From IMG/VR virus record IMGVR_UViG_3300012921_000075, positions 1-27,922 of that record: a stretch of DNA of 27,922 bases. One strand, 5' to 3'. This stretch comes from a virus. Taxonomy: Duplodnaviria; Caudoviricetes. Position 1 is the stretch's first letter; the number at the start of each line of letters is the position of its first letter. Below, piece after piece: positions 1-25,242 of this stretch. The notes under the pieces were generated by a model. That model was given only the letters and a program-made list of their open reading frames with translations. It was not told where the DNA came from and made no database searches. Both the position numbers and the translations under genes were made by a program.

Positions 1-513
1 TTACTCGTCTTCCTCGCTCTCGTTCGTCGAGTTCCAGTGTTCCGGACCGAACTTCGCCGCATAGATGTCGACGAGTGACCGGGGGCGAATTTCGTACGCG
101 TCGCTGCCGAAGTTCCACTCGGCCAGTGGCCGCAGCAGATCGCGGTCGATGCATCGGACGAGCTCCGCCAGCTCGAGGTGAACGGCTGATAGGGCAATGA
201 CAAACGGTATCCAGCGACCGGAGAATCCGCTGCCAGTCGATGAGGCCTGAATAATCTCGGGGGGCACTTCCAAAGCCTTCCAGATTTCCAGGTCGACATC
301 GCGCTTCCACTCGAAGATTTGCGTTGCGCCACCGGTGTCCTGCGGCGGTGTGTAGTCGACGAGGCGCCGGCCATCGCGGTCGTAGACACTCGGCAGCGTC
401 ATGGCACCGCCCGTCTGCCGCATCTCGGCCAGTTCGCGGGCGATATCTCGCCAGCTGACGTCGGTGCCGTCAGGCAGCGTGACCTTCTGATCGGGCGGAT
501 ACCAGATGATGTC
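1..513 (-). pseudogene. 3' half of interrupted DUF935/Mu gp29-like portal gene (outer cluster)
   Basis: The frame of ORF 1..423 stays open upstream to the att junction (D-I-I-W-Y-P-P-D-Q-K...E-L-A-E-M). It joins in frame with the 5' half at 24604..25242, giving KDAYVG|DIIWYPP. Confidence 0.85.
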
Positions 514-544
514 GCCAACACCTTATATTGGACCCCTGAGGGAA
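498..544. other. Left att junction: host arm, TC core at 512-513, phage arm 514-544
   Basis: Phage arm gccaacaccttatattggacccctgagggaa matches the reverse complement of 24571-24601 at 21/31 positions. It lies just upstream of the recombinase ATG at 552. Confidence 0.85.
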
Positions 545-551
545 ATCGGCC

Positions 552-2156
552 ATGACCAAACCAATCGCCTACAGCTACGTTCGTTTCTCCAGCAAAAAGC
601 AAGAACAAGGTGACTCAGTTCGTCGCCAAGTCGCCGCCACGGAAAAGTTCTGCGAACGGCACGGCCTGCAACTGGACCGAACCCTGAAGCATGACCTTGG
701 GAAGTCTGCCTACCATGCGAAGCACCTAGAGGAAGGTGGCTCTTTGGCCGTCTTCCTGTCGATGGTCGAAAGCGGACGAGTGAAGCCCGGCTCTTGGCTC
801 GTGCTGGAATCGCTGGACCGACTGTCACGTCAGAAGCCAAAGGTGGCACTGCGGCTGCTGCTGTCGATTGTGGAGCAGGGTGTCACCCTCGCCACGACTG
901 ACCCAGAACGAATCTACACGGACGAGTCCACCAATGACATTTTGCCGTTGATGGAAATTCTGATGATTGCCAGTCGGGCGAACGAGGAAAGCGAACGGAA
1001 GTCTTCACGAGTTAAAGAAGCCCGGAAGAACTCGGTGAACGTCGCCAAGGCCACTGGAAAGATCATCACGTCTCGGTGCCCGGCGTGGCTCGAAGTTGTG
1101 AATGGCAAGTTCGTCATCAACGAAGAACGGAAGACGGTCATTGAACAGATTTTCGCAATGGCCAAGACGATGGGCAGCCGGGCCATTGCCAAGGAATTGA
1201 ACCGTCAAAGGGTTCCCACTTGGGGCGGTGCTGTGGCGTGGGGCTGGGCCTACGTCCAATTGATCCTGGCAGACGGCCGGGTGTGCGGCCACCATATCTG
1301 TTCCAAGACCAAGCAAGTGCTGGTGCCCAACTACTACCCACGAATTATCTCGGACGAACTCTTTGACGAACAAAAGTGCCTGCGAAACAAACGGAAGAAG
1401 TTCTCCGGTCCAATCGGGAAGTGTGTGACCAATCTGTTCCAAGGGCTGATGTTTGACAAGGAAACCGGCTCGTCCCTCGTGACGGTTCGCAAGGCCAAGG
1501 ACAAGCCAACTCGGCTGATTCCATCGGCCTACGAAACCGGGTCCACTCCGAACGCCAAAAGCTTCCAGTATGACACCTTTGAAGAAGCATTCCTGAACTA
1601 CATCATGCGGCTGAAAGTGGCTGACATGATGCCAAACAAACAGAAGCAAGTTGACCGGCTGCCGTCACTCATTGCTGAACTTGCTGATGCTGAAGCCCAA
1701 ATTTCTGATCTCACCAAGGCACTGACCAACCGCAAGAAGCCAATGGCTGCTGTGCTGGATGCTATCGAGCAACTAGAGGCCACCAAAGCAGCACTGACGA
1801 GTGAAATAGAGGCCGAGAAGGACAAGACCAGAAGTTCGGCCGGTGACACTCTGGAGACTTGCAAGACGGTTGTGGAACTGCTGAAGACGGCCAAGGGTGA
1901 AGACCTTGTCACGGCCCGGCTGAAGATTAGGGCTGCCGTGCGAAGGTTGGTGAAGAAGATTGATTGCCAGATTGAAGCCCAAGGCTGGACCTACATCTTG
2001 GAAGCCAAAATCCACTTCCACAGTGGGGTGCTGGGTTCGCTCACAATCAAGACCGTGCGGGGCAAGCTGGAATCAGTGAAGTCAGGACTCAAGCCGGCGT
2101 TTGATCCAAGTTGGTTGTCCAAGGCTGACTATGCGAAGGCCAAGCAGCGGTCTTAG
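552..2156 (+). CDS. int: Large serine recombinase (phage integrase)
   Basis: N-terminal YSYVRFSSKKQ (catalytic Ser) and ESLDRLSR motifs, recombinase domain with YPRIISDELF, C-terminal coiled coil; 534 aa next to the att site. Confidence 0.95.
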   Translation: MTKPIAYSYVRFSSKKQEQGDSVRRQVAATEKFCERHGLQLDRTLKHDLGKSAYHAKHLEEGGSLAVFLSMVESGRVKPGSWLVLESLDRLSRQKPKVALRLLLSIVEQGVTLATTDPERIYTDESTNDILPLMEILMIASRANEESERKSSRVKEARKNSVNVAKATGKIITSRCPAWLEVVNGKFVINEERKTVIEQIFAMAKTMGSRAIAKELNRQRVPTWGGAVAWGWAYVQLILADGRVCGHHICSKTKQVLVPNYYPRIISDELFDEQKCLRNKRKKFSGPIGKCVTNLFQGLMFDKETGSSLVTVRKAKDKPTRLIPSAYETGSTPNAKSFQYDTFEEAFLNYIMRLKVADMMPNKQKQVDRLPSLIAELADAEAQISDLTKALTNRKKPMAAVLDAIEQLEATKAALTSEIEAEKDKTRSSAGDTLETCKTVVELLKTAKGEDLVTARLKIRAAVRRLVKKIDCQIEAQGWTYILEAKIHFHSGVLGSLTIKTVRGKLESVKSGLKPAFDPSWLSKADYAKAKQRS

Positions 2157-2176
2157 ATCGATCTGACAGCCACATG

Positions 2177-2207
2177 AACCCGGTCAATTGGCCGGGTTTT
2201 TTCGTTT
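2177..2207 (+). terminator. Intrinsic terminator after integrase
   Basis: Stem aacccggtc-aatt-ggccgggtt running into ttttttcgttt. Confidence 0.85.
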
Positions 2208-2213
2208 GCGGCC

Positions 2214-2242
2214 ATAGATACCTCCACACACTTATTGGAGGT
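2214..2242 (+). promoter_or_regulatory. nTAnATA promoter-like motif overlapping an SD-sequestering hairpin
   Basis: ATAGATA at 2214-2220; ACCTCCA (2220-2226) is complementary to TGGAGGT (2236-2242), the SD of ATG 2247. Confidence 0.6.
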
Positions 2243-2246
2243 TCTG

Positions 2247-2657
2247 ATGGCTCTTGTTGTTTCTAATGCTGGCGAACTGCTGCTTCTCGAATGGCTGCTT
2301 AAATCGACTAGCACCCCGGAAAATTTGACATTGAAGTTGTATTCAAACAACTACACTCCGCTTGCCACTTCTACGGCCGCTAATTTCACGGAATGTACTT
2401 TCACCGACTATGCCGCTAAGACGCTCAGCCGGGCTTCCTGGACCGCTCCAGCGACCAATGGCAGTGGCAAAGGCGAAACCACCTACGCTGAACAAGAGTG
2501 GACGGCAGGTTCATCACAGACCATCTATGGCTACTACGTGGTTGGTGCCACTAGTGGAACTTTGATCTGGGCACAACTATTCCCAACTCCACGAACTCCG
2601 GCCAGTGGTGACACGGTGGTTGTCACGCCTAAATTCACCCTGAATTCCGAGAACTAA
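2247..2657 (+). CDS. Putative virion/tail-fibre-associated protein (136 aa)
   Basis: GGAGG SD before ATG 2247. Thr/Ala/Gly-rich beta-type sequence (LKLYSNNYTP...IYGYYVV...TLIWAQ) resembling small phage tail-associated proteins. Confidence 0.6.
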   Translation: MALVVSNAGELLLLEWLLKSTSTPENLTLKLYSNNYTPLATSTAANFTECTFTDYAAKTLSRASWTAPATNGSGKGETTYAEQEWTAGSSQTIYGYYVVGATSGTLIWAQLFPTPRTPASGDTVVVTPKFTLNSEN

Positions 2658-2662
2658 GGCGG

Positions 2663-4048
2663 GTGATGTTCTTAAAAGACGTTGATGACTCGTTTGTAAA
2701 AATCAATCATGGTGCCGGTGGAATCGGTGACGCTTTGCTAGGTCTTTGCGTCACTGCTGGTCTAAAAGCGGAAGGCAAAAAAATTGCCTACGCTGTCTCG
2801 CCCTACTCGATTCCATTCATCAGGCTGTTCACCGGCTATGACGTGTTGTGTGAACACATCCACGACCGCTGTGAAGCTGGCTTCTGGCCTTCTGATGACC
2901 TTCAAATAAATGATGGCTATCACGGTGAATGCAAATCGAAGGCTGCGGTGAATTCCCGGTTTGAACGTTATGCCTACAACGTTGGTTATCGAGGGAAGCC
3001 AGTTCTGCCGAGACTTCGCAAGCCACTTCCTGCAAGTCGCTTTCCCGGCCATGTTGTTCTCTGTCCCTATTCAAGCTGGATGAATCGTCAGTGGTCCATC
3101 AACAGTTGGGTGACTCTCGAAAGACTGCTTCTGGAAGCTGGCTACAAGGTGGTGATCCTCGGAACTCAAGCCAGTGACTTGTTCAGGTCGCCACAAGTCG
3201 TGAATGAAACACCAGCGAACGTGACTGCGGTGCTGAACGAAGCAGACATGGTTATTGGCACTGACTCGGGAATGGCCCACCTTGCCGGCATCCTCGGAAG
3301 GCCCACCATCGTCCTTTGCGGCCAGACGACTGTTCCGGCTGTTTTCGGTGCCTACCCAAATGTGATTGGAATCAACGGCAAACTGGACTGTGGCGGCTGC
3401 TGGTGGCAGAAGCCCTATCACTCTGAACGGTGTGATCCTTGCTGTCCCAACTTGCAATCCATCGCACCGGCTGACGTGCTCAAAGAAGTGGACAATCAAC
3501 TGCTGGTGAAGTATTCGGACCACAAAGCCTGTATCGGGCCTGAGAAGTTGCCAGTGCTTCGTGATTGTGTAATGGAGACAAAGTCACTTCATGGTGACTT
3601 GGCGGAGTTCGGTGTCTGGAAGGGTGGCACTGCTCGGCTAATCCGCCACTTTGACAACAAGTCGCCACTCCATTTGTTCGATACTTTTGAAGGAATTCCT
3701 GAGACAGACACGTTCGAAGGTGGCCATGTGCAAGGTGACTTCGATGATACCAGCTTGGCTGAAGTTCAAGCCCTCGTGCCTGATGCTCGGTTCTATGTCG
3801 GCAAGTTTCCTCTGGAAGTGGAAGTGCCCGATGTTCAGTACAAGTTCGCCCACGTTGACTTTGACACTTATCAAAGCACTTTGGCTGCCTGTACCTATCT
3901 AAAAGACAGAATGGTCCCCGGTGGAATCATCGTCTTCGATGATTATGGGTGGGGGGCGTGCCGTGGTGTTGCGTCGGCCATCGCTGAAGTCTTTCCCGGT
4001 CGTCACCTTGACCGGCCAACCATAAATCAGGCCGTTCTTCGTACATAA
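2663..4048 (+). CDS. Fusion of GT9 (heptosyltransferase-like) glycosyltransferase and TylF/MycF/NovP-like O-methyltransferase
   Basis: GGIGDALL and DMVIGTDSGMAHLAGILGRPTIVL (GT9); GDLAEFGVWKGGT, LFDTFEG, AHVDFDTY and GGIIVFDDY (TylF family). Confidence 0.85.
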   Translation: MMFLKDVDDSFVKINHGAGGIGDALLGLCVTAGLKAEGKKIAYAVSPYSIPFIRLFTGYDVLCEHIHDRCEAGFWPSDDLQINDGYHGECKSKAAVNSRFERYAYNVGYRGKPVLPRLRKPLPASRFPGHVVLCPYSSWMNRQWSINSWVTLERLLLEAGYKVVILGTQASDLFRSPQVVNETPANVTAVLNEADMVIGTDSGMAHLAGILGRPTIVLCGQTTVPAVFGAYPNVIGINGKLDCGGCWWQKPYHSERCDPCCPNLQSIAPADVLKEVDNQLLVKYSDHKACIGPEKLPVLRDCVMETKSLHGDLAEFGVWKGGTARLIRHFDNKSPLHLFDTFEGIPETDTFEGGHVQGDFDDTSLAEVQALVPDARFYVGKFPLEVEVPDVQYKFAHVDFDTYQSTLAACTYLKDRMVPGGIIVFDDYGWGACRGVASAIAEVFPGRHLDRPTINQAVLRT

Positions 4049-4051
4049 GAC

Positions 4052-5392
4052 ATGCCTGTAATTCATGCCGGACAAGTATATGACTGGGAAGGGAATCTCC
4101 TTGGGGAACAGCCTGAGGAGCACTACGTCTCGGCTTTGTCTGGCTCCGGTGGCTCCGGCACTGGCGAACCACCCCCTACAGAGTGTGTCTTCTATTGCGA
4201 CGATTCGCCTTGCGGCTGCGGTGATGCTCCTGAATGTGATTCAGACAACGTTGCCACTCGTGAATTTGTTCAATACGAAATTACACAGAACGGTGACGAC
4301 GGCAGCTACAGTGCCTTGTTCTTCAATCAGTTCAATAATGAAGTGGCCGAATTCGGTCACTACCAAGTCTCTGAGTCCGGCACGATAGTGGACAAGGGAA
4401 GCTGGTTCACTTACCGTGGCCTTGCCCTCAATCCCACTATGCGCATTCGCAAAGCCCAGCTTCGGTTCACTGCTTGGAACGATGGTGGAACGCCAGACCT
4501 ATACCAAGAAGTGGACGATACTGAAGTCACGATCTCTGGCCACTGCTCCGCTGGTGTCGCTCGAATCCCTGAGTTTTTCGACCAGCCATCCACGACGATT
4601 GACCAAGGTGGTGGTCTCGATACTTACTGGCCACGAACGGCCACACAAATTGGATGGCACCGCCCAGCGGTTACAAGTGAAGACGAGTTCACTACGCCAA
4701 ACATTGCTTGCATTCTCCAAGAACTGATTCACCGGGCTGACTGGGAATCCGGTGATGACATCACACTGTTCATCGATGCCTGCACCGAACGGCCGAATGG
4801 ATTTGAGACCAAAGAACTTCACCAAGTCTATGACTACTTCAGTGATCCTGACAAAGCAGCCAAATTAGAAATTTGGTACACGTTCGTTTTCAGGGAAGAG
4901 ATGAGTGGCGGTGTCGTCTGCGGTGGCAGTGCTGACGTTCAACTTCGGATGGCACCACCAGTCAGTGGTGGCGTTGTCGTCAGTGGCAGCGGTGGCACTG
5001 ACTATGAAGAGGTCATGGACGGTGGCGTGGTGGTCGGTGGCAATGCCAACGTCTCTGTCACACAAACTGGCAACATGAGCGGTGGCGTGGTTGTCGGTGG
5101 CGATGCTTCAGTCATCCAAGTGACTGGACCTTTGCTTTATAGGGTCAAAGTGACAGTCCCAGCCGGCAAGGTCAGCACTCCGCTTTATCACTTCCACCTT
5201 GGCTTCCATCTCGAACTTGGCGAACACATGAATGTTCCTCACTTCCGGGTCACTGACATGGATGACGTTGAAATCTTCCCTGAGGTTCGATTCTTCGAAG
5301 CTGGTGACAGCGTGGTTCTGTTTTTTAGGGGCCATGTGCTGCCGGACCAAGACAACGAGTGGTGGGTCTACTACGGGCGGGAGGAAGTCTAA
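4052..5392 (+). CDS. Putative virion fibre/adhesin-like protein with four SGGVVxGG repeats and a DUF2341-like C-terminus
   Basis: Acidic 446-aa ORF with a Cys cluster near the N-terminus; C-terminal FRVTDMD...NEWWVYYG resembles DUF2341. Confidence 0.55.
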   Translation: MPVIHAGQVYDWEGNLLGEQPEEHYVSALSGSGGSGTGEPPPTECVFYCDDSPCGCGDAPECDSDNVATREFVQYEITQNGDDGSYSALFFNQFNNEVAEFGHYQVSESGTIVDKGSWFTYRGLALNPTMRIRKAQLRFTAWNDGGTPDLYQEVDDTEVTISGHCSAGVARIPEFFDQPSTTIDQGGGLDTYWPRTATQIGWHRPAVTSEDEFTTPNIACILQELIHRADWESGDDITLFIDACTERPNGFETKELHQVYDYFSDPDKAAKLEIWYTFVFREEMSGGVVCGGSADVQLRMAPPVSGGVVVSGSGGTDYEEVMDGGVVVGGNANVSVTQTGNMSGGVVVGGDASVIQVTGPLLYRVKVTVPAGKVSTPLYHFHLGFHLELGEHMNVPHFRVTDMDDVEIFPEVRFFEAGDSVVLFFRGHVLPDQDNEWWVYYGREEV

Positions 5393-5515
5393 TGGCCGGT
5401 TGCGGAAGTTGTAATGTAATCAGGCTGCCGGCATCCGGTGGCGTCGTCGTCGGTGGTTCGGCCACAGTCACTGACTCCATTGTCGGTGGTGGCGTCGTCT
5501 GCGGTGGCTCGGCCC
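4901..5515 (+). repeat. Six (M/S)GGVV(C/V)(G/S)G(S/N/D) peptide repeats spread over two adjacent genes
   Basis: Copies near 4901, 4962, 5015 and 5074 in the first gene, and near 5434 and 5485 in the second; DNA core gtggcg(g)t/ggtggcgt recurs. Confidence 0.85.
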
Positions 5516-6255
5516 TCGTGGAAATTCGACAAGACCCGTATGACGGCCTGGAAGCTGTTTGGCCCTTAGACGAGGTTGGCAGCGGTGTAGAGGGTGAATA
5601 CAAGGACCGTTCACGTCACCAGCTTCATGGCACTGGTGGCCTTCAAGTGCCGGAGCGAATCGAAGGTGTGTACTGCCTCGGTGCCCAGCAGTTCACGGAA
5701 GGTGAAGACGGTTCGGGAAGCTATATCACTTTGCCTGCTGATGATCTGCCAACGGACCATGAATTCTCAGTTTCGTGCTGGATTCGATGTGATCTCCAGT
5801 ATTCACCACGAACGTTCTATTCACGAGGCTTCGAAGACGAGGCTGGAAACCAGTGGCAGTTCTCACTTGGCTATGGCTGGATAAATCATGTGGTGGCAGC
5901 CATTCAAGTCATCAACAGTGACGGCGAACTGGTGACCTATGAAGCCTTCTCTAACACTACTTTGGAACTTGAACGCAACTACCACGTAGCAGCTACATGG
6001 CAGCCCGGTGTGGGCCTTCGCTGCTTCGTGAACGGTGTGGCGGGTGACCTTTATGAAGTGCCAGAAACGGCCACAGCGGAAAGCACGAACGGTGGATATT
6101 TCGGCCGGTGGAACATGGCGTCTTATCCAACTGGCATGCTTCAGGAAGTCCGGCTACACCCTTGTGTCCGCTCGGCTGATTGGCTGCTGGCCGAATATCA
6201 CAACTTCTGTGACTCCAGCTTCTATTCAGTTAGCACCGAAGAAGCAGCACCTTAA
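5392..6255 (+). CDS. LamG/concanavalin A-like domain protein, possible receptor-binding protein
   Basis: TAATG overlap start at 5392. Motifs GLEAVWPLDE, FSVSCWI, YHVAATW, CFVNG and GMLQEVRL...RSADWLLAEY. Confidence 0.8.
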   Translation: MAGCGSCNVIRLPASGGVVVGGSATVTDSIVGGGVVCGGSALVEIRQDPYDGLEAVWPLDEVGSGVEGEYKDRSRHQLHGTGGLQVPERIEGVYCLGAQQFTEGEDGSGSYITLPADDLPTDHEFSVSCWIRCDLQYSPRTFYSRGFEDEAGNQWQFSLGYGWINHVVAAIQVINSDGELVTYEAFSNTTLELERNYHVAATWQPGVGLRCFVNGVAGDLYEVPETATAESTNGGYFGRWNMASYPTGMLQEVRLHPCVRSADWLLAEYHNFCDSSFYSVSTEEAAP

Positions 6256-6422
6256 CGAGGCTTCACCCGGCGTCCACAATTGCAGCCCTTCCGCTTGGGT
6301 AGGGCCTGAACGGTGGCCGGCTGCTGCTGACACTCCCTTTGTTCAAGCTCGTCAACAGTTGGTGGTTGCTGGCACATGGCACAAAGCCATTTGCCGTCTT
6401 TTTGAACGTAGTCACAAATCAT
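6252..6422 (-). CDS. Small Cys-rich protein (56 aa), not in the ORF track
   Basis: ATGA overlap with the upstream stop; MICDYVQKDGKWLCAMC...KGCNCGRRVKPR; its stop overlaps the convergent gene's stop in TTAA (6252-6255). Confidence 0.6.
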   Translation of the reverse strand: MICDYVQKDGKWLCAMCQQPPTVDELEQRECQQQPATVQALPKRKGCNCGRRVKPR

Positions 6423-6982
6423 CCGCATGTCCTTTTTCTAGCTCCATTGAATGCGTCCAGAATGTAGCGTTCACCCGCTGAAGACACGTCATCCAGAATT
6501 TTCATTTTCGGCCACGCTGCCTTTAGCTGGGCCTTCGCTGCTGCAAGCTCGGCGGCATAACTGGACACGACGATGCTTCCCGAATTATCTAAGCAAAACA
6601 GAAGCAAGTCTGGGCCGTCATCGCCACCAAGTGCGTCTGGATTCGTTCGGATTTGCTCGAAGAAGCTGGTGATGTTCCCAGAATTGACCCTCGGTGTCTG
6701 GGCACCAAGGAACATGGTGTCAATGACTGGCCTGTCAGTGTCCAGTGGGAAGACCGATGTGGCAGGCTTCAGGGTTGCTGCTGACCCTTGCGGACCCATC
6801 AGGCCCATTCGGACTTGGCTTCGTTCGATGCCGTCAATAAACGTTTCCCACACTGTCTTGTCCGCTTCGTAGGTTGTGGGCGAAGGTGTGTAGACCGGCG
6901 ATGATTCGTCATATATGGCGATAATCATCATGGTGCGATAACAGCAGCACGGTTCACATGGGTTGTATCTCTTCCAAGGCAT
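6419..6982 (-). CDS. Cys-rich protein with a VWA/MIDAS-like motif, last large gene of the tail operon
   Basis: TAATG overlap start at 6982 (MPWKRYNPCEPCCC); LFCLDNSGSI fits DxSxS. Confidence 0.55.
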   Translation of the reverse strand: MPWKRYNPCEPCCCYRTMMIIAIYDESSPVYTPSPTTYEADKTVWETFIDGIERSQVRMGLMGPQGSAATLKPATSVFPLDTDRPVIDTMFLGAQTPRVNSGNITSFFEQIRTNPDALGGDDGPDLLLFCLDNSGSIVVSSYAAELAAAKAQLKAAWPKMKILDDVSSAGERYILDAFNGARKRTCG

Positions 6983-7626: not shown

Positions 7627-7637
7627 CGGCCCCCTAA

Positions 7638-8444: not shown

Positions 8445-8459
8445 GCCCTATCTAGTGCT

Positions 8460-10253: not shown

Positions 10254-10260
10254 TGTCCTC

Positions 10261-10904: not shown

Positions 10905-10915
10905 TTGGTTCCTTT

Positions 10916-11329: not shown

Positions 11330-11333
11330 GTTT

Positions 11334-11367
11334 GATACCTCACATAAGGGTGGTGTGAGGTATCTAT
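11334..11367 (-). promoter_or_regulatory. nTAnATA motif overlapping an 11-bp SD-sequestering hairpin
   Basis: Perfect inverted repeat gatacctcaca (11334-11344) / tgtgaggtatc (11354-11364); ATAGATA on the minus strand at 11367-11361. Confidence 0.65.
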
Positions 11368-11385
11368 CCAGTGGCTTCGCAAAAA

Positions 11386-11808: not shown

Positions 11809-11819
11809 GCCCTATGTAG

Positions 11820-14702: not shown

Positions 14703-14778
14703 TGGTCCTCAATTTCTGTGTTTATCTTATAGACGTTGCTCCTTCGGGAGACTTGGATGGTGGCCTTTGGGCCGTGAT

Positions 14779-16940: not shown

Positions 16941-16956
16941 ACGGTATGTAGCCTTG

Positions 16957-18531
16957 TCACCAAATTTCCACGACTGATTGGCCCTGAGGGACAACAGCAC
17001 TTACGGTGTCCTTGTCCAACCAATAGGAAAGAGCAATTGCTGTAGCGTCTACGCTGTCGATTTTGTTTATGTCCTGAGACTTTTTGATGTCCAAGCGGTC
17101 ATATCGATCAAGCTTAGGAACACAATTGTCCAAGTGGTTCAGATAGATGGGATTATTGTTGTGCCTCAGTTTTCTTTCACGAAAAAGACCATCCATCATG
17201 GTGAAGCCCGGTCCCATTCCCCGCTGTGACTGCGTCACTTCCTTGCAGTTGATGCCGTATCCTTCAAGCAACTGACGACTTGGCTGGAAGTTCGTCGGGT
17301 CATACCTCAACTGAAGCACTTGAAACTTGAACGTCTCGGCCTTCAAACGTTCCACCAAGTACAAGTGATCGATGGTGTCTCCCGGCGTCAGGATCAGATT
17401 CGACTTTGGATCATTCGCCCACGCTCGATACGGAACGTGGTGTTTCTTCTCCCACTCTTCAGCCTTCTTCTCGGGAATGGCGAACTTGGGAATGACGTAA
17501 TAGAGGTCATTCACCTTGCAAACCGTGACATACGAATAGATGTCATAGGACTTCGCAGCATCGACCCCGATGACCACGGGCATCCCATAGAATCGGGACT
17601 CGTCAAATTCCTCGTGGCAAGCCTGAATGATGCCCGGCGCAAGCCAGTTCTCTGGTGCCCCTACGATCTGATTCAGGTGAAACGTTCGGAACTGAACCGA
17701 ATCAGTCGGACTGTCTTTGACTTTTGCGTACTCTTCCCGGTAGAACTCCTGCGGAACTAGTTCTGGGCAGGCTGGCAGATTAGGCCACCAGTTCGATTCG
17801 TCCTTCCAGTCTGCGAACTCTGGCACTCCATAGTGAATGGCGAACGTCGTGATGTCGTTCACCTCCGGTTCTTTGCCATCCAGCAAGTTCCGGCTTCTCA
17901 CCCAGCAGTCATAGGCCGGACAAGTGTGGTTGTAGTTGGCGTGGCTGATCGTCAGCACCAACGAGTTCGGCCGGGCCATGCCGGCGTGTTTCACCTTGGC
18001 CCACGTATTGGCGGCGTAGGCAGGGTGAAGTTCAAAAAATTCATCGATAATCAGTAGATCGCAATTGAAACCTGACTTAGCGTCACCCTTGCCGCTGATG
18101 ATTTTCAATTCGGATTTGGACACCCGGTCAACAATGGTGCCCTTGTCTTTGCGAAACCAAAGTCGCTTGTTCAGGGTCTCGTTGCCGGCTGCGAACCCTT
18201 CAATGGCGGACCAGATTTCATCCGTCTGTTCTTTAACGCCAGACAGAATGATGGTCTTGGTTTTCGTTTTGCCGGTGACTTTCCATGCTGCGATTAGTGC
18301 GAGCAAAAAACTTTTTCCAGACTTTTTCGGGCACCAAATGTGTCCGGTCCTGAACCGTAGCTTTTTGTCTCGTCTTCGCCATCCCCAAAGCGGTTTGATG
18401 ACTCCTTCGTACTGCCAATCCAGCAAATCAATTGAGCAATACTTCCGGGCAAAGAGTTTGATCTGCTTCGGTTCTGTCTCGTCTAGGTAGCAGCCTTGTT
18501 CAATCGCCTTGGCATCACTCGGAAGCTTCAT
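16957..18531 (-). CDS. terL: Terminase large subunit
   Basis: Walker A PKKSGKS, Walker B LLIIDE, nuclease motifs IGVD and KIDSVDA. Confidence 0.95.
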   Translation of the reverse strand: MKLPSDAKAIEQGCYLDETEPKQIKLFARKYCSIDLLDWQYEGVIKPLWGWRRRDKKLRFRTGHIWCPKKSGKSFLLALIAAWKVTGKTKTKTIILSGVKEQTDEIWSAIEGFAAGNETLNKRLWFRKDKGTIVDRVSKSELKIISGKGDAKSGFNCDLLIIDEFFELHPAYAANTWAKVKHAGMARPNSLVLTISHANYNHTCPAYDCWVRSRNLLDGKEPEVNDITTFAIHYGVPEFADWKDESNWWPNLPACPELVPQEFYREEYAKVKDSPTDSVQFRTFHLNQIVGAPENWLAPGIIQACHEEFDESRFYGMPVVIGVDAAKSYDIYSYVTVCKVNDLYYVIPKFAIPEKKAEEWEKKHHVPYRAWANDPKSNLILTPGDTIDHLYLVERLKAETFKFQVLQLRYDPTNFQPSRQLLEGYGINCKEVTQSQRGMGPGFTMMDGLFRERKLRHNNNPIYLNHLDNCVPKLDRYDRLDIKKSQDINKIDSVDATAIALSYWLDKDTVSAVVPQGQSVVEIW

Positions 18532-18865
18532 CAGCCTCCGGTTCGTCCGTCTCGTCTAATTCCAAGTCCAACTCTTCCTCGGCCTTGGTCGCTTGCCACA
18601 AACCAAGTCTGCGGCCAATGCGTTCGTACTGCTGGTGTGCCCTGGTAGCAATTCCTAGGGCATCGTGTGGCTTCCCGTTCAGGATGAATGACCGGGACTC
18701 TTTCACGTAGCCTTGGACCTCGTCATGGGCTGAACGGTAGGTCTCGTAAGCATCCGCCATCATGGCGAGTGAATCACGGTCCCGGATGCCGGGATTTGCC
18801 TTTAGAGTTCTGGTGAACCACTTCTTTCCGACGGGTCCAAGCCAGTGTGGTGCTGATGTTGCCAT
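18515..18865 (-). CDS. terS: Terminase small subunit (P27-like)
   Basis: APHWLGPVGKKWF, DRDSLAMMADAY and RRLGL motifs; overlaps the terL start. Confidence 0.8.
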   Translation of the reverse strand: MATSAPHWLGPVGKKWFTRTLKANPGIRDRDSLAMMADAYETYRSAHDEVQGYVKESRSFILNGKPHDALGIATRAHQQYERIGRRLGLWQATKAEEELDLELDETDEPEADEASE

Positions 18866-18893
18866 GTCCTATATAAGTCGGACCAAGTCATTT

Positions 18894-19094
18894 TCACTCG
18901 CCATCGTCCGGTTTCTTTTTCAAAACACATCCATGCCGTGCTAGGAACTGTTCTCTGGTCTCTCGACGATGTGGCTTCTTGAGGGCTTCCTCAAGCTGCT
19001 TGCGGTATTGCCTGCGGTATTGGTCGATTTCAGGCCAAATGGCCCGTAAAGCTTCTGCTAGGGCTTCTCTATCGTGTTCTGTGGGCTGTGTCAC
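18894..19094 (-). CDS. Hypothetical protein
   Basis: GGAGG SD before GTG 19094; co-oriented with neighbours. Confidence 0.5.
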   Translation of the reverse strand: MTQPTEHDREALAEALRAIWPEIDQYRRQYRKQLEEALKKPHRRETREQFLARHGCVLKKKPDDGE

Positions 19095-19153
19095 TGGCCT
19101 CCAATTCTGGGGTCATTTTTGGGCGGAAAAAATGTGCAAGTGGCCGACGCTCG

Positions 19154-19495
19154 TCAGTCTTGGGCGGTTGTATAAAAATCGGCGTTCTCCTTGCATTCAG
19201 GGCAGCACGGGACTATTCCACGCCTTACACAGCCACCGCCACCTTTCCCGTCACAGATCGTTTCGAAGCCATCCTCATTCGACACTCTGACTACCTCGTC
19301 ACTATCGGCCCTGAATATCTCTTCGCTGCCGTCGATGTAGGTGACTGTGACGGAATCAACCGCTGTATCTGGTGGCAATGGTATGCCGCCTACATCGTTT
19401 GTAATCAGCACCATTCGGCACGACTTGTGGAACAAGGCACCATCTACCACTTGCCAGATACCACGCACAATGAACAACACCATATCACTGAACAT
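19154..19495 (-). CDS. Hypothetical protein with a connector-like segment and Cys cluster
   Basis: AAGGAG SD before ATG 19495. Confidence 0.5.
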   Translation of the reverse strand: MFSDMVLFIVRGIWQVVDGALFHKSCRMVLITNDVGGIPLPPDTAVDSVTVTYIDGSEEIFRADSDEVVRVSNEDGFETICDGKGGGGCVRRGIVPCCPECKENADFYTTAQD

Positions 19496-19503
19496 ACTTC
19501 TCC

Positions 19504-19689
19504 TTAGTTAAACTGCTCCCTACGCATGACCACCAGCATGTCCGCCACCAGTGGTAGTGTCACTTCTTCCTCGTTGCCCATCTCTTCTACATAGGCAAGG
19601 ATTGTCCTTGCGAATCGGGCTGCTTGCATGGTGGTCAGGGTAGGGTCTGCCTCCATGACTAGGGCCTTGATACTTCTAAACGTGTTCAC
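19504..19689 (-). CDS. Hypothetical protein
   Basis: AAGGAG before GTG 19689, overlapping the upstream gene's end. Confidence 0.5.
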   Translation of the reverse strand: MNTFRSIKALVMEADPTLTTMQAARFARTILAYVEEMGNEEEVTLPLVADMLVVMRREQFN

Positions 19690-19924
19690 CTCGCTCCTTT
19701 GCTGCTTCCTGTGCTTCTTTGAGGGTTGCAAAGTAGAGGTTCGCTGCGAACTTGTTCAGTTCCTCCCATGAACAATACTTGAACTCCTTCCACGGTTTGA
19801 AGCTTTCAGTCCACCCGACATACACCGGTTCGTCCACCTCGAAGTGAAGTTCCACATTCTTTAGGTGTTTTGGAAGGCCAAGTCCATCGCTCAACAACTT
19901 GCCAAAATGATTGGCTACTACCAT
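19676..19924 (-). CDS. Hypothetical protein
   Basis: AGGAG SD and ATG directly after the HNH gene. Confidence 0.6.
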   Translation of the reverse strand: MVVANHFGKLLSDGLGLPKHLKNVELHFEVDEPVYVGWTESFKPWKEFKYCSWEELNKFAANLYFATLKEAQEAAKERGEHV

Positions 19925-19931
19925 GTTTCTC

Positions 19932-20189
19932 CTATTCCTTCGCTGATTTTGCGTTGTGGCACTGGATACACAGTGGCTGCCAGTTGGTCACCTCCCAGAA
20001 CAACTGGAGGTTCCCTTTGTGGGGCTGCTTGTGGTCAGTGACTGAGGCCACATTCCCACACAACCAGCACTCTGGATGGTTGTCTAGGAAGGCCCTAGAT
20101 GCTCGTCTCCACTCCCTGAGGGAATAGAGACGAGTGTGATCGAATGTGCCTTTGAACTTACTGGCCCGGTTCATGGGCCTCGATTTCAT
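19932..20189 (-). CDS. HNH endonuclease (HK97 gp74-like packaging cofactor)
   Basis: CWLC...DHKQPH...NWQPLCIQCHNAKS. Confidence 0.93.
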   Translation of the reverse strand: MKSRPMNRASKFKGTFDHTRLYSLREWRRASRAFLDNHPECWLCGNVASVTDHKQPHKGNLQLFWEVTNWQPLCIQCHNAKSAKE

Positions 20190-20481
20190 CCAGCAATCTG
20201 CGGATGTACTTGATTTGTTCTCGGCTGATGCCGGGCTTGCCGCTCACCACCGTGGCGTAGTGGGCTTCCTGTAGTGCCACAACTGCTACGCTTGGTCTAT
20301 GGTCGTCTTGGGAAACTTGGCCCAGACACTTGGCAACCTCAGACGCTGGAATGCGAAGATGACTTGTCGGACTTACGTTCAGTAGCTTCCCCTCCGCTAC
20401 CAGCTTTTTGACGTGCGAGGCGCTTACTTCCAACTGCTTGGCGGCTTGTGCCGTGGTTAACAGCACTTCATTTGTTCTCAT
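20158..20481 (-). CDS. Excisionase-like HTH protein (HTH_17 type)
   Basis: LLTTAQAAKQLEVSASHVKKLVAEGKL...LRIPASEV. Confidence 0.8.
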   Translation of the reverse strand: MRTNEVLLTTAQAAKQLEVSASHVKKLVAEGKLLNVSPTSHLRIPASEVAKCLGQVSQDDHRPSVAVVALQEAHYATVVSGKPGISREQIKYIRRLLDEIEAHEPGQ

Positions 20482-21230
20482 TCGCCTCCCAGTTCGTCGG
20501 AAGCCTGCGGTAGGTTCTCAACTGCTCCCAGCTTCAGAACTGCTTTTGCAAATTCGTCGCTGCTGCTCGTGGGAATCTTCGACACCTCGTCAACGATGTA
20601 TGCCTTCTCTTCCTCGTCTGCGAAGGTGAAGGTGAACTTCCGATAGCTGGGCCATTCGCTGCCGTCATAGATTTTGTTGTCCATGACCACATAAGTGACC
20701 GGCTGCGGCTTGGTCAGGAAGTCTTTGATCGACTGGGCCGCTTCGAACTCAGCTTCCTGAGTCGGGGCCTCTAGCACTTCCATCAGAAGTGATTTTGGAA
20801 TCGCTTTTTCTGTGGAGTATGCCTCCTGAAACCCTCGCTCGATTTCGTCCAGTCTGGCGATTTGTGCCGCTTCCAGCAGCTTCGTGGCTTCAGCATCGTC
20901 CACTGGAATCACTGGCTGTGTCTCGAAGGGTTCGCCTGCCGAGTTCGTTCGGACTTCGCCTACATCGAACTTGTTGAATACCGGTTCGGCACCTTCTGGC
21001 AGCTTGGCACCTTTGCCGTCCAGCAAGTTCCCTTGGCTGTCGATGTCCAGTAGTTCCACTACCTTGTTCTGTTCTTCTTCTGGCAGCGACTTGCACTGTT
21101 TGAGAAGGGCCGCTCGGTCTTGCCTGAGACCATGAATCATTCGATCAACTTCCCGCTGTCGCAGCCCGGCCCTAAGTGCCACGAAGCCAATAATCGCCAA
21201 GACCACCGAAATCACAATTCCACTTACCAT
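20478..21230 (-). CDS. N-terminally membrane-anchored protein carrying segments similar to the tail protein at 7638-8444
   Basis: AAGGAG SD; hydrophobic MVSGIVISVVLAIIGFVAL followed by basic residues; see findings. Confidence 0.75.
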   Translation of the reverse strand: MVSGIVISVVLAIIGFVALRAGLRQREVDRMIHGLRQDRAALLKQCKSLPEEEQNKVVELLDIDSQGNLLDGKGAKLPEGAEPVFNKFDVGEVRTNSAGEPFETQPVIPVDDAEATKLLEAAQIARLDEIERGFQEAYSTEKAIPKSLLMEVLEAPTQEAEFEAAQSIKDFLTKPQPVTYVVMDNKIYDGSEWPSYRKFTFTFADEEEKAYIVDEVSKIPTSSSDEFAKAVLKLGAVENLPQASDELGGE

Positions 21231-21248
21231 GTTTCTCCTTTTTGATTT

Positions 21249-21467
21249 TTACTCTGCTGGATAGTTTTCTGTGTCACCGTCTTCGAAGTCCCCCGGGACT
21301 CGTTTTGGTTGTCGCCGCTCCCATGCAAGGAAGATGTGGCGAATGAAGGCCGAAACATTCATTCCTTCCACTTCGGCGTGAGTGTTCAGCCGCTGAAGCA
21401 TGTCTGGAGGCATACAAATGCAAAATGGTTTGCTCAATCGATCATTCTCTGGTCTTGGTCTAGCCAT
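21249..21467 (-). CDS. Ribbon-helix-helix (CopG/Arc-like) DNA-binding protein
   Basis: MARPR...FCICMPPDMLQRLNTHAEVEGMNVSAFIR. Confidence 0.75.
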   Translation of the reverse strand: MARPRPENDRLSKPFCICMPPDMLQRLNTHAEVEGMNVSAFIRHIFLAWERRQPKRVPGDFEDGDTENYPAE

Positions 21468-21660
21468 TTTCTGCTCCCTCCACATCTTTCAAAATTGCTT
21501 CGATGATCTCCAAGCCCTCAGTCATCAGGGCGAGATACCGGCGAACCGTTGCCGGTGTATAGACGGTCAATCGACTGTAACCGTCAGATAGAAGGGCCTG
21601 ACTTCGCAACACCTCCCTGAGGGTGTCTTCTGCTCGCTCAGGCCGTTTTTGATACCTCAT
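21460..21660 (-). CDS. Hypothetical protein
   Basis: ATGA-coupled in the operon; GAGGG SD. Confidence 0.55.
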   Translation of the reverse strand: MRYQKRPERAEDTLREVLRSQALLSDGYSRLTVYTPATVRRYLALMTEGLEIIEAILKDVEGAENG

Positions 21661-21839
21661 TCACCCTCTTCTTCTGGTGCCACGATCCTGGTCACTTCTT
21701 GCTGATTGAATATGCCCAGTCGGCCAAACTCTAAGGCCGTCTGGCATAACCACAAATCGTGGTCAATCATCGCCAATTGGCGTCTGAGTGAAGCCAAGTC
21801 AGGATCAGTCTCGGCCTCGTGCGTCCAGTAGTTTTGCAT
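21657..21839 (-). CDS. Hypothetical protein
   Basis: Preceded by CTAGATA-GTTT-ATG. Confidence 0.6.
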   Translation of the reverse strand: MQNYWTHEAETDPDLASLRRQLAMIDHDLWLCQTALEFGRLGIFNQQEVTRIVAPEEEGE

Positions 21840-21907
21840 AAACTATCTAGTGTATGATAGTGCAATATAATGCAATAATTTCTGGATTCTGGAAGTTTTG
21901 TGTGGTG

Positions 21908-22111
21908 CTACTTCCTGACGCTTGCTCGGTGCCACTTTCCACAGACTTCGCAGTGATACGGACGCATGCCTTCGGCCTTGGCCACTTCTTCCGTGGCATA
22001 CTGCTTCTTGCTGTAGCACGATCTCCATTCCACGTAGCCCTTGTCCCTCATCATGGCTCGTGCTGCTTTGGGAAGCTTGCTGTAGTCGATGGGCTGATAC
22101 CGCTTCTTCAT
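21908..22111 (-). CDS. Small putative Zn-binding phage protein
   Basis: C..KKQY...A and RPYHCEVCGKWH pattern; ATGA overlap with the upstream ORF. Confidence 0.65.
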   Translation of the reverse strand: MKKRYQPIDYSKLPKAARAMMRDKGYVEWRSCYSKKQYATEEVAKAEGMRPYHCEVCGKWHRASVRK

Positions 22112-22254
22112 TTGGCATCGTCCGCTTCGAACCGGGCAATGGCTTCAGCGAAGCCCTTTGCAATTTCCTCGATTGCTGCCTGTGCCTTTTTCAGTCCCTC
22201 GACAAACTGCTTCGTGTCCAAAGTCAACTGTGTTTCAATCTCGCCTACTACCAT
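22108..22254 (-). CDS. 48-aa protein resembling a tape-measure N-terminus, not in the ORF track
   Basis: GGAGG SD; MVVGEIETQLTLDTKQFVEGLKKAQAAIEEIAKGFAEAIARFEADDAK; its stop overlaps the next ATG. Confidence 0.7.
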   Translation of the reverse strand: MVVGEIETQLTLDTKQFVEGLKKAQAAIEEIAKGFAEAIARFEADDAK

Positions 22255-22366
22255 GTGCCTCCATTGTTTGGGTCTTTTGCATTATTTAGAGTCGCAAACT
22301 CTATATAAATGGTCATGTGACGGTTCCTTTCTCCCGTCATGTGGTTGTTAGATGTTCCTTGAAAAT

Positions 22367-22411
22367 GCCCCGGTAGGTTTAGTGATTTTTTCCTACCGGG
22401 GTTCTTTTTTT
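22367..22411 (+). terminator. Intrinsic terminator with the T tract on the + strand, possibly bidirectional
   Basis: ccccggtagg / cctaccgggg stem followed by ttcttttttt. Confidence 0.7.
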
Positions 22412-22424
22412 GGACCAACACCTT

Positions 22425-23405
22425 CTAGGCCGCTCCTGGCCACACAACGTGCTGAAGCATTCTCAGTTGTGGTGACTCGATTCTGGGCACCGTATAGACA
22501 TGCTGCGGCACTTCCAGCGGCGTTGGAATCGCTCGTGGCCAAGTCACCGGCTGCTTCGGTCGTGGCTTCGCTGATGACTTCTTGGCGGCGTGGATGTCGG
22601 CCCAGCCCTCGGCCTCTAGCTCGGCTCGTGGCTTCGTAAAGAAGTTGCCCCATTCCAGCATGTGGCGGATGTAGTGGCCGGACTTAAACAGCAGTGGTGT
22701 CTTGTAGTTGATGTCTTTTGTGACGTAATGACACCACTTCTGCTCGTCTTGGATCGCTGCGAAGTGAGTGACTTCGGCGTCCTGGCGATTGGCTGCTTTA
22801 CAAAAATAGGTTTTTGCTGTGGCCTCGTCTAAGTCCGTGGAAATTGTGCAATGTAAATGGACCAAATTGTCTGGTGTAATTTCTCGGAATAAAACCGCTT
22901 CTAAGCGGAAGTCATGTAGTTTGCAGTAGCGTGCAATGCTTCGGCGTGCGGCCTCGTTCCATTTGGACTGTTGTTTCGGTGTTTTCCAGACCTTGAACTG
23001 GATGGTGCCTTCGAAGTTGTACCTTTTGTACTTGTTGTTGGCCAACAGCATCACGCATTGACGCTTGGCATGCTTACGGCGTGACTGGAGGGAATCGGTA
23101 GGTCCGGTGAATCCCTTTGGTGATGTTTCTCGTGGCTTCGATTGGTATAGGGTGAACTCTTGTGGAGGTCCGAAAAAGCCCTCTGAAGGTGCCTTTTTAC
23201 GGCGTGTCCTAGAAGAGTTACCGTGTTTTCGCCATATAGAAGGCGGGGGCTGTTCTGTCTTGCGCCCTAATTTGTGATTTTGTATACTCGGCTGCATCAA
23301 TTCTTTCACCAGCCGGGCCAAGGTTGCAATCTTTTGGTCCGGCTGTTTTTCTTCTCTTGTGATTTCTCCTCGTGGTGACTGGGCTGACCCTGACACAGCA
23401 GCCAA
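22425..23405 (-). CDS. HUH endonuclease, rolling-circle Rep-like protein (start uncertain; ATG 23297 possible)
   Basis: Ordered motifs GTIQF (I), REITPDNLVHLHC (II, HUH) and HYVTK (III, YxxK). Confidence 0.7.
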   Translation of the reverse strand: MAAVSGSAQSPRGEITREEKQPDQKIATLARLVKELMQPSIQNHKLGRKTEQPPPSIWRKHGNSSRTRRKKAPSEGFFGPPQEFTLYQSKPRETSPKGFTGPTDSLQSRRKHAKRQCVMLLANNKYKRYNFEGTIQFKVWKTPKQQSKWNEAARRSIARYCKLHDFRLEAVLFREITPDNLVHLHCTISTDLDEATAKTYFCKAANRQDAEVTHFAAIQDEQKWCHYVTKDINYKTPLLFKSGHYIRHMLEWGNFFTKPRAELEAEGWADIHAAKKSSAKPRPKQPVTWPRAIPTPLEVPQHVYTVPRIESPQLRMLQHVVWPGAA

Positions 23406-23484
23406 TCTGATGTATCTAGGAACTCATTGCTAGATTAAATAATACACTGTCATAGTTTTCTGGAATTATTCTCGTATAGAAACG

Positions 23485-23509
23485 AAAAAAGCCCGGATTA
23501 AACCGGGCT
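23485..23509 (-). terminator. Intrinsic terminator
   Basis: gcccgg-attaaa-ccgggc stem followed by ttttttcgttt on the minus strand. Confidence 0.8.
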
Positions 23510-23541
23510 GTGTAGTTCGGAAAAAGTTGTTTTCGGTGCCG

Positions 23542-23829
23542 TCACTTCTTCGCTGGCTTTTTCCCTCTGAAGGCACTCATCCCCTTATCCCGCTGCAATG
23601 CCTGTTTGATTTCCTTGGCGGTGTCGGCGGTCCACGAGATGTTTGTCAGGAAGTCGATGTCTCTGACGGTCGTTCCCTCGGGCAAGCTCTCTAGGAATTC
23701 GACACTGGCCTGGAAGTCACTGAGTTCGTATTCCAGAACGTGGTCAGCATCGCCTTGCTTCAGCTTCAGATAGAGGTAGTCGGCCAAGGGTCCGCATTCG
23801 TCGGGAAGTTCAAATTTGGGCTTTCGCAT
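23542..23829 (-). CDS. Hypothetical protein (95 aa)
   Basis: GGAG/AGGA before ATG 23829; followed by a terminator. Confidence 0.6.
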   Translation of the reverse strand: MRKPKFELPDECGPLADYLYLKLKQGDADHVLEYELSDFQASVEFLESLPEGTTVRDIDFLTNISWTADTAKEIKQALQRDKGMSAFRGKKPAKK

Positions 23830-23942
23830 TGTCCTGACTCCGGTGTTGTGATCGAAACACCGGCGTCTACGTACAACCTTACTTGCCCCCTCGTGAATGC
23901 CGAGAAAATGCGGGCGACTGAATTTGTTCACTACTCAGTACA

Positions 23943-24206
23943 CTAACCCCTGAGTAGGTCATCAAGCCATCGTTCGGCGTTGTCGTCCCATCGCTTTTTC
24001 ACATCCCGAACGTTCTTTGGGGAGACTTCGATCTCGTAAACGTCCCGGATGAACTCAGCAACTTGTGCCGGTCCCGGCTTCAAATCGGGTTGCTTCGCCA
24101 GATACGAAAGAGACCACCGGATGCAACTGGCAAGGCTTACGTATTCGCCTTTGGCTTTCATCGCCTTAGCGGCGGCTGGATCAATGAAGGCTCGGTCTCG
24201 TGGCAT
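23943..24206 (-). CDS. Putative HTH DNA-binding protein
   Basis: GPAQVAEFIRDVYEIEVSPKNVRDVKKR has an HTH-like pattern. Confidence 0.5.
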   Translation of the reverse strand: MPRDRAFIDPAAAKAMKAKGEYVSLASCIRWSLSYLAKQPDLKPGPAQVAEFIRDVYEIEVSPKNVRDVKKRWDDNAERWLDDLLRG

Positions 24207-24215
24207 CCCACCAGT

Positions 24216-24407
24216 TTAATCGAGGAAGTCTTCCTCGTCAGGCGTTTCAAAGAACTCGTGCATGGCCTCTTTGAAATCGGCCGGCAAGTTCAGCCGGTCC
24301 ATCGCTGCCAAAAAGCCGGCAATGTCCAGATCGTCAGAAGCCAGCTTGGCGATAAGTTTCTTCGCCTGCGGAAGGTCATAGTCCGTCGTGTTCATGGCTG
24401 CACCCAT
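24216..24407 (-). CDS. Small acidic hypothetical protein, first gene after the RNA element
   Basis: Two in-frame ATGs (24407 and 24395) flank the repeat GGGTGCAGCC. Confidence 0.55.
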   Translation of the reverse strand: MGAAMNTTDYDLPQAKKLIAKLASDDLDIAGFLAAMDRLNLPADFKEAMHEFFETPDEEDFLD

Positions 24408-24498
24408 TAAACGAAAAAACCCCTAGGGCCTCGTTCGGTGTGCAGCCGAGTGGCGAAACCCTAGGGGGTCCAAAATGTTTGTTGATCGGCTGCACCCC
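24396..24498 (-). ncRNA. Candidate P4 CI / P1 c4-like antisense-attenuator element
   Basis: Direct repeat ggctgcaccc at 24396-24405 and 24488-24497; its complement at 24440-24449 sits at the apex of a hairpin (24420-24467) ending in U6. Confidence 0.55.
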
Positions 24499-24567
24499 TC
24501 AGGATTCGCTAACCATTTGCGATGTAAAGCAAACCGGGTCCAGAATTCCCGAAATAGCGGTAGGGGC

Positions 24568-24595
24568 TTGTTTCGTCAGTGGGTGGATATATGAT
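24568..24595 (+). promoter_or_regulatory. Candidate sigma70-type promoter inside the right phage att arm
   Basis: TTGTTT (24568-24573), N16, TATGAT (24590-24595). Confidence 0.45.
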
Positions 24596-24618
24596 GTTGG
24601 TTCACCCACGTAGGCGTC
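24571..24618. other. Right att junction: phage arm 24571-24601, TC core at 24602-24603, host arm
   Basis: Inverted-repeat partner of 514-544; portal-like sequence stops at KDAYVG. Confidence 0.85.
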
Positions 24619-25242
24619 TTTCACCATCCGCAGCCGCAAGGTGCGCTTTGCTCCTCCTTCCATCCACTTTTCGTACCAGGCCGGGAATGCCCGGGCGAGC
24701 AACGCACAACCGTAGGGATTGCTGCGCTCGGCATCGAACGTGGTAACCAAAGCCTGGGGAGCCAGAAACGTGGATTCCTGCCCTCTGTCGCGCATGACGA
24801 AGCCGGCGAGGCGATCGTCCGCAAACAGCAAGCGGCACTTGCGCGGCTCGTGGTCCTTCAGGCGATCGAACTCGATCGCGCCATCGAACTCGCCGCCGCG
24901 AGCCTGGCGAAATTCAATCTCGAACGGCATGAATCCATAGTGCTTCGTGCGCAGTAACTGCTGCGCACTCGCCGACCAAAGTCGACGCCACTGCTGCTTC
25001 ACCCAGCGATTGAGTTGTGCATTGCGGCCAATCACGTCCACTTGAGCCGACATCAGCAGACCATTTCGCGCCCCCAGGCCGATGCGCACCTGTGGGTCGA
25101 ACCGCATCTCGTCGGCGATTTGCAAAGTGAAGGGCGGCAAGTCGGCCGGCTGATTCGGCGTGAGAGCCGGCGACGCTTCGCGAAGCCGGCGGCGCGAAGT
25201 CGGCTTGGGAAACAGCGAACGCAGCGAACGGAGCAGTTGCAT
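24604..25242 (-). pseudogene. 5' half (213 codons) of interrupted DUF935/Mu gp29-like portal gene; reads through into phage DNA to a stop at 24499
   Basis: DPQVRIGLGARNGLL, YGFMPFEIEF and NPYGCALLARAFPAWYEK resemble DUF935 portals. Confidence 0.8.

Follow-up and report, generated by a model that had tools for sequence, protein, structure and literature searches.

A portal gene of planctomycete bacteria is a recurrent integration site for serine-integrase elements and lies in a domesticated, tail-less capsid system. We describe it from a stretch of DNA of 27,922 nucleotides (IMG/VR virus record IMGVR_UViG_3300012921_000075, positions 1 to 27,922; below, the window), in which a 24,090-bp prophage splits the portal gene of a chromosomal cassette of five phage-type head genes at codon 214. 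Unrelated mobile elements break the portal repeatedly at this one codon and so are likely to switch off the particle that the cassette is predicted to make for its host. The repeated breaks make the portal a recurring integration site in a candidate SOS-induced system that resembles gene transfer agents (GTAs).

The initial annotation read the open reading frames (ORFs) at the two ends of the window as halves of one portal gene split by a serine-integrase prophage, and this reading stands. Deleting 24,090 bp between the junctions (Table 1) leaves 1,152 nucleotides that encode 383 amino acids (aa) plus a stop, in the portal frame and free of internal stops; precise excision would therefore restore the gene, as had been proposed. 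The junction and the 383-aa product were correctly placed, but the boundaries of the halves had to be moved: the C-terminal half begins at position 513 (Asp214) rather than at the ATG at 423, and the ORF at 24499..25242, taken whole as portal, consists of 213 portal codons followed by 34 read-through codons derived from the prophage. A gene with Resolvase and Recombinase domains begins 39 bp inside the left junction, as expected of a serine-integrase element. The junctions have a 2-bp GA core, a symmetric predicted attP, and no long direct repeat. This attP has 25 mirror matches out of 40, compared with a maximum of 22 and a mean of 9.9 at 24,008 other positions of the element, and the insert differs from its flanks in GC content (52.8% versus 60 to 62%).

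Neither half of the portal gene shows decay (ratio of nonsynonymous to synonymous substitution rates [dN/dS], 0.025 and 0.020 against loci L078/L085, with dS saturated). Undecayed halves fit a recent and a reversible insertion alike, and the two cannot be split on this evidence. The excised form, as an attB or attP joint, was not seen in the contigs of four DNA sequencing runs, each a possible source of the window, and contigs drop rare forms; in three of the four runs, one contig spans both junctions, with no joint or loose end at either. A hairpin at 24400-24520 was not significant (z = −1.6), which leaves read-through coupling of cassette and prophage unsupported.

Collinearity of homologues across the join had been set beforehand as the test of the split-gene reading. 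The comparison covered the best 120 of 250 homologues, of which 109 cross the join in one high-scoring segment pair; the best of them, 384 aa long, shares 93% identity across 383 aa. Conservation among the homologues extends to G213 and the D/E214-I-x-W-Y-P columns, and the C-terminal half is 93.5% identical to the same half in L085. The N-terminal half matches Portal_Mu (PF06074, E = 3e-11) and phrog_113. A structure model of the intact homologue P0001 (predicted local distance difference test, 72) matched solved portals over its full length (best E = 1.8e-11; template modeling score, 0.4 to 0.5), and a PDB sequence search with the portal gave weak matches.

Interruption at this codon is not confined to the window. 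Eleven of the 120 homologous proteins stop at or just past the same codon and end in unrelated tails, although some of these may be assembly ends. Among 59 metagenome loci, 35 have an intact site, 10 are broken at the GA dinucleotide, and 14 do not display the site. Together with the window and genome G405, the junction sets number eight and represent at least seven distinct insertions; on a tree of portal N-terminal halves, the 13 interrupted tips require 13 changes. At L085 and in G405, the occupant carries an integrase in the position and orientation seen in the window, with nonphage cargo. Beyond the integrase, the occupants of L085, G405, and the window share no clear homology, and the window integrase itself is only 39% identical to that of L085 and 35 to 36% identical to that of G405, all at the same site. 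What remains of the occupant at L107 is 678 bp long and includes an integrase stub. Symmetry of the predicted attP is weak (16/40) for L085/L078 and for L107. That the insertion knocks out a GTA-like particle, as suggested initially, follows from the sequence as a consequence of the split portal. The G405 island (L123 17628 to L124 15567) includes DNA methylases, a tyrosine integrase, ApeA-HEPN, and ArdC.

The identity of the interrupted system is given by its surroundings. Two loci, L082 and L102, match the window exactly and continue past it, and the outer gene order is dacB, scaffold-like gene, decoration, capsid, gp36 adaptor, and portal, followed by FMN reductase and DUF1559. The scaffold-like gene, which we take to be a Mu I/Z-type scaffold minus its protease, aligns to the C-terminal part of a 411-aa protein in longer relatives; the short-form cassette has no protease domain. 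dacB adjoins the cassette in 14 of the 20 genomes with enough upstream DNA. Integrase, replication, and tail genes were not found beside the cassette, whose flanks are host genes, and no integrase, regulator, or primase of a mobile island lies within 7 kb upstream or 10 kb downstream of it. P0001 had no match among 50,697 GenBank phages. In one host clade (L011, L012, L015, L016), a Tad/Flp pilus gene cluster lies downstream of the portal.

Named relatives of the cassette are Pirellulaceae; the cultured Anatilimnocola sp. NA78 (locus L009) is one example in which the cassette is intact. We scanned 401 order-level and 401 family-level genomes with a portal profile, scoring four candidates per genome, and obtained matches in 15 and 40 genomes, respectively. 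We ordered the family-level genomes by how similar their RpoB is to that of the closest host, G004; the portal was present in 16 of the first 17, and the remaining one, G306, retains other genes of the cassette. At ranks 18 to 20 there were one partial match, one miss, and one hit, and a close portal copy occurred in only 2 genomes at ranks 21 to 150. Portal and RpoB distances were correlated (Spearman's ρ = 0.71, n = 26; ρ = 0.61 for the 20 short-form genomes left after removal of six long-form or distant ones; P = 0.0005), and five supported RpoB clades reappear in the portal tree. Low dN/dS values were obtained for portal (0.03 to 0.22, 9 pairs), capsid (0.07 to 0.15, 7 pairs), and TerL (0.07 to 0.15, 6 pairs), with a range of 0.07 to 0.19 for capsid, decoration, and TerL together, and the dS of cassette genes is similar to that of RpoB. 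Judged by these comparisons, the cassette is host inherited, sits at a fixed chromosomal site, and is under purifying selection in one Pirellulaceae group. The outer cluster is intact, and its earlier reading as GTA-like is supported. In G003 (L029 3830-9480), a small serine-recombinase element, now decayed, interrupts the cassette capsid gene near codon 272, and gp36 was not found.

Promoter analysis suggests that the DNA damage response may control the cassette. Sigma-70-like promoters are present at both head and terminase loci, and the motif TG[A/T]AC-N4-GTATA, which may be the LexA box in this clade of planctomycetes, lies upstream of lexA and recA (L283-L287, L292-L295). The box matrix was built from eight terminase promoters, with background from the analyzed loci, in genomes that are related to each other. 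It found the box upstream of lexA in 5/5 genomes and of recA in 4/5 at P < 0.03 (the fifth recA sequence is incomplete), at 13 of 23 head promoters (P < 0.05), and at 9 of 21 terminase regions, eight of which are the training set. SOS control of the cassette and its terminase is our prediction from these boxes.

The TerL family paired with the cassette is phrog_979. Matches at E < 1e-100 came from 27 of the 31 genomes examined, usually with one copy each, with motifs that we take to be Walker A, Walker B, and the nuclease acidic motif; a PDB sequence search with TerL was blank. In relatives, the gene lies after the portal, beyond dacB, or up to 325 kb away, and its usual companions are helix-turn-helix (HTH), ParB-like, and ABC-GNAT genes. 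At L009 1120-3182, L195, L197, and L201, HTH, ParB-like, and ABC-ATPase+GNAT genes precede terL, and at L018 12053-15871, the cassette terminase frame has a LAGLIDADG domain, likely an intein.

Tail genes distinguish a longer form of the cassette, which keeps a tail-tube-fold gene and two large genes without assignment (L026, L104, L131 [G341], L069, and L084). L026 occupies the same dacB locus, which suggests stepwise tail loss. A 566-aa long-form gene, for which an atlas look-up named no family, gave strong matches in 7 of 31 genomes and weak ones in 2; of the strong matches, six are in long-form or distant genomes and one is at a separate phage-like locus. The long-form tail-tube profile matched none of five short-form genomes, versus two of two long-form controls. 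PF13550 matched in 0/5 genomes, PF10145 was absent from G001, G404, and G062, and the PF06841 profile, which matched no control, is uninformative. PF05954 matched in 4/5 genomes, in frames of ~680 to 700 aa that are likely type VI VgrG. Phage-like contigs with related head genes and tail genes were also found (L036-L044, L238, L240); their portals, 965 to 1,470 aa long, are fused to Mu gpF and 2H-phosphoesterase/Acb1-like domains.

The prophage encodes its own head, packaging, and tail genes (Table 1), so it does not need the outer portal. Its late genes are oriented as the cassette is, and its integrase gene is antisense to the target portal. The fibre-like and GT9+TylF methyltransferase genes at 2235-6255 run opposite to all other late genes and in the direction of the integrase; this block likely comprises fibre or adsorption genes and modification genes. 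The excisionase-like HTH protein, 107 aa long, is a candidate directionality factor. In the 208-aa ORF we presume an HUH motif; the PF23343 match has an E value of 0.063 for the ORF and 0.0018 for its sole homologue, P0242 (74% identity), and a PDB sequence search with the ORF was blank. If this reading holds, a small HK97-type prophage carries a rolling-circle initiator. Among the prophage proteins, no repressor, holin, or endolysin was matched in Pfam, PHROGs, or NCBIfam, and no AlpA or primase in Pfam or PHROGs; an atlas look-up named no family for a 250-aa prophage ORF.

Scans of viral contigs with the window portal half and with terL gave no matches, and integrase scans returned only full-length relatives of 24 to 39% identity, none adjoining cassette genes. 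At 13 other integrase loci in a 401-genome sample, no cassette gene lies within about 1.5 kb, indicating that the integrase family as a whole is not portal specific.

Table 1. Positions of the portal halves, junctions, prophage modules, and cassette genes in the window
Feature	Position	Strand	Basis
Portal C-terminal half (Asp214 to stop, 170 aa)	1..513	-	Join, homologue alignment
Left junction; GA core 513-512 (minus strand), prophage half-site on the higher-coordinate side	472..553		
Prophage, 24,090 bp, 52.8% GC	512..24601		
Large serine recombinase, 534 aa	552..2156	+	PF00239, PF07508, phrog_95
Four-gene block: Gp80-like, GT9+TylF-type methyltransferase, 446-aa protein without assignment, LamG-domain protein	2235..6255	+	
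Prophage neck and tail: adaptor, head closure, neck 1, terminator, tail tube, chaperones, 597-aa tape measure, three distal genes without assignment	6419..13096	-	
Prophage HK97-type head and packaging: capsid, S78 protease, portal, terL, terS	13407..18865	-	PF04860 (portal)
HNH nuclease and excisionase-like HTH protein	19932..20481	-	PF01844 (nuclease); TIGR01764 over cut-off (HTH protein)
Candidate HUH rolling-circle initiator, 208 aa	22425..23051	-	Weak PF23343
Right junction; GA core 24603-24602 (minus strand)	24562..24643		
Portal N-terminal half (codons 1-213)	24602..25242	-	PF06074, phrog_113
Cassette head-tail adaptor (Mu gp36-like)	25307..25801	-	PF07030, phrog_195
Cassette major capsid protein (Phage_cap_E)	25969..27168	-	PF03864, phrog_29
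Cassette head decoration protein	27140..27922	-	PF02924
Scaffold-like gene, promoter, dacB	Past window end, L082 4898-7250		

We consider it on balance probable that a phage has integrated into a host-inherited cassette that builds SOS-induced, DNA-packaging heads, at a site that is both conserved and dispensable, and that occupants of the site gain by silencing a rival machine. A temperate phage would integrate, likely via its own serine integrase, at the GA dinucleotide in portal codon 214. DNA damage would lift LexA repression of the head and terminase promoters, and portal, scaffold, capsid, and terminase would form heads that package chromosomal DNA, as in GTAs. With an element in the portal, only a 213-aa stub would be made, giving heads that lack a packaging vertex until excision. 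Integrases are likely drawn to the portal site as a conserved, single-copy, and dispensable sequence, and silencing a machine that would be triggered by the prophage-induction signal likely benefits the occupants, in a way that resembles the disruption of competence genes by serine-integrase elements. The portal site would then be an invader's landing site with a side benefit and not a host developmental switch. This account and its rivals overlap in part.

Several observations weigh against it. The conservation of the site may be enough to account for its targeting. Four genomes (G003, G306, G405, and G418) have a damaged cassette, which is by this measure dispensable, and TerL and RpoB distances are only weakly correlated (0.32 to 0.38). 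No significant box was found at the head promoter of the window host (P = 0.46) or at L078 or L007, and in L082/L102 a terminase gene was not found within 10 kb of the cassette, the pairing being known from relatives. Heads without tails cannot deliver DNA by themselves, and the cassette retains a single neck protein. Finally, excision would restore the portal at the very moment of prophage induction, which weakens the benefit.

The closest competitor, possible but less probable than the account above, is a neutral landing site: the codon would be used only as a conserved, single-copy, dispensable sequence, and neither host nor element would be much affected by loss of the portal. Among 1,068 windows, the 40-bp site is 53rd in nucleotide conservation (top 5%); it lies in a run of invariant residues, and damaged cassettes persist in the four genomes. 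In the available text of PMC10083194, a single conserved site within a prolyl isomerase gene is the shared target of diverse large serine recombinases (LSRs). However, two other portal regions that are equally conserved have no insertions in the loci analyzed, and the capsid gene is also split, by the LSR remnant in G003. Elsewhere, moreover, selection preserves an intact cassette, which makes some effect of disruption probable.

More tentatively, the favored account could be extended: Anatilimnocola-clade Pirellulaceae may own an SOS-induced, tail-less GTA that packages DNA of the chromosome and borrows the tails of related phages, and transfer could overwrite or destroy integrated elements. 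Serine integrases aimed at the portal would then have evolved repeatedly in phages and islands, making it a comM-like conflict hot spot.

A defensive role for the cassette, as an anti-phage decoy, appears unlikely. In this view, heads and terminase made on SOS induction would compete for phage DNA, cut it, or mispackage it, or would sequester tails; the insertion would be a counter-defense. In its favor, the cassette has no tail, a terminase partner, and an SOS-type box, and there are phage-like contigs in which related head genes accompany tail genes. Yet the available text of PMC10083194 reports no enrichment of defense genes among LSR targets. The head of the window prophage is, furthermore, HK97 type and unrelated to the cassette head, making subunit interference unlikely.

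The initial annotation had also raised the idea that the element controls particle production by excising itself, as a host-useful switch of the skin/sigK or SPbeta/spsM type in which regulated excision times the particles. Precise excision would restore the frame, neither half is decayed, an excisionase-like gene is present, and the late genes of the prophage run in the direction of the cassette. We nonetheless regard a switch as very improbable and do not retain it: most copies are uninterrupted (109/120 proteins; 35 intact versus 10 broken loci), the occupants are unrelated and scattered on the tree, the 678-bp L107 remnant and the G405 deletion cannot restore the gene, and the insert is a full phage and not a reduced element. 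That the outer genes are an ordinary prophage remnant, making this a nested prophage, as first entertained and as the cataloging of the window as a virus record, the phage-derived genes, and the longer forms with tail genes might suggest, is largely refuted and scarcely credible given the fixed locus with host-gene flanks, clade-wide presence, inheritance congruent with RpoB, low dN/dS, host-like GC, and absence of integrase, replication, and tail genes beside the cassette.

These results bear on why bacteria keep GTAs. If it is true that mobile elements repeatedly knock out a GTA-like system, as they do competence genes, this would be genomic evidence that the particles harm mobile elements. 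Natural intact and interrupted alleles exist that are 99 to 100% identical (P0001 versus L078/L085). The work delineates, in planctomycetes, a capsid-plus-terminase system that lacks a tail, spans a clade, and has a predicted LexA box, and it provides a serine integrase whose att sites are mapped. We found no description of the cassette or the insertion site in searches of the open-access literature.

In the skin/sigK, SPbeta/spsM, and A118-like/comK systems, a serine-integrase element interrupts a host gene that its excision restores; interruption of the portal differs in being sporadic, caused by unrelated elements, and sometimes irreversible. The Rhodobacter capsulatus GTA (RcGTA) and the Caulobacter GTA, as described in the available texts of PMC9632790, PMC9836097, and PMC7947584, have phage head and packaging genes without integrase or replication genes, split loci, purifying selection, host regulation, and a link to DNA damage. 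The cassette is similar in its structural and packaging genes (the terminase in relatives), its lack of integrase and replication genes, its split loci, its vertical inheritance, and its purifying selection. It differs in its families (Portal_Mu, Phage_cap_E, gp36, and phrog_979 TerL), and no tail genes were found in the short-form genomes searched; it is like a GTA head locus but is not classed as a GTA.

Phage-inducible chromosomal islands that form capsids (cfPICIs) are mobile, have an integrase and a primase, and encode capsid, portal, terminase, and adaptor with no tail (PMC10085698, available text). The cassette likewise combines capsid, portal, adaptor, and terminase without a tail and would need the tail of another element; unlike cfPICIs, it has no adjoining integrase or primase and follows the host tree. 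Helper-embedded phage-inducible chromosomal islands (PICIs), as presented in the available text of PMC10111431, are small satellites inside inducible helper prophages of Enterobacterales. They integrate inside phage late genes, Phage_portal_2 sites included, with an attP that brings no replacement sequence, so that the gene is functional only after excision. Insertion into a late gene without replacement sequence and repeated tropism for late genes are shared with the present case. The window element, in contrast, is a serine-integrase phage with its own head, terminase, and tail and without the PICI core (AlpA, primase). Its integrase gene runs antisense to the portal, which belongs to a host-flanked, vertically inherited cassette. 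The available text of PMC10111431 makes no mention of serine, GTA, or planctomycetes.

The targeting has a parallel in site-specific LSRs. In the available parts of PMC10083194, competence genes, which serve host DNA uptake, are the most enriched LSR targets, and distant LSRs on different elements share one coding site; the terms "portal" and "capsid" were not found in 8 supplementary files of that paper. As with those LSRs, the integrases described here use a 2-bp core, and distantly related enzymes meet at one conserved coding site; unlike the targets reported in that material, the target here is a domesticated portal gene.

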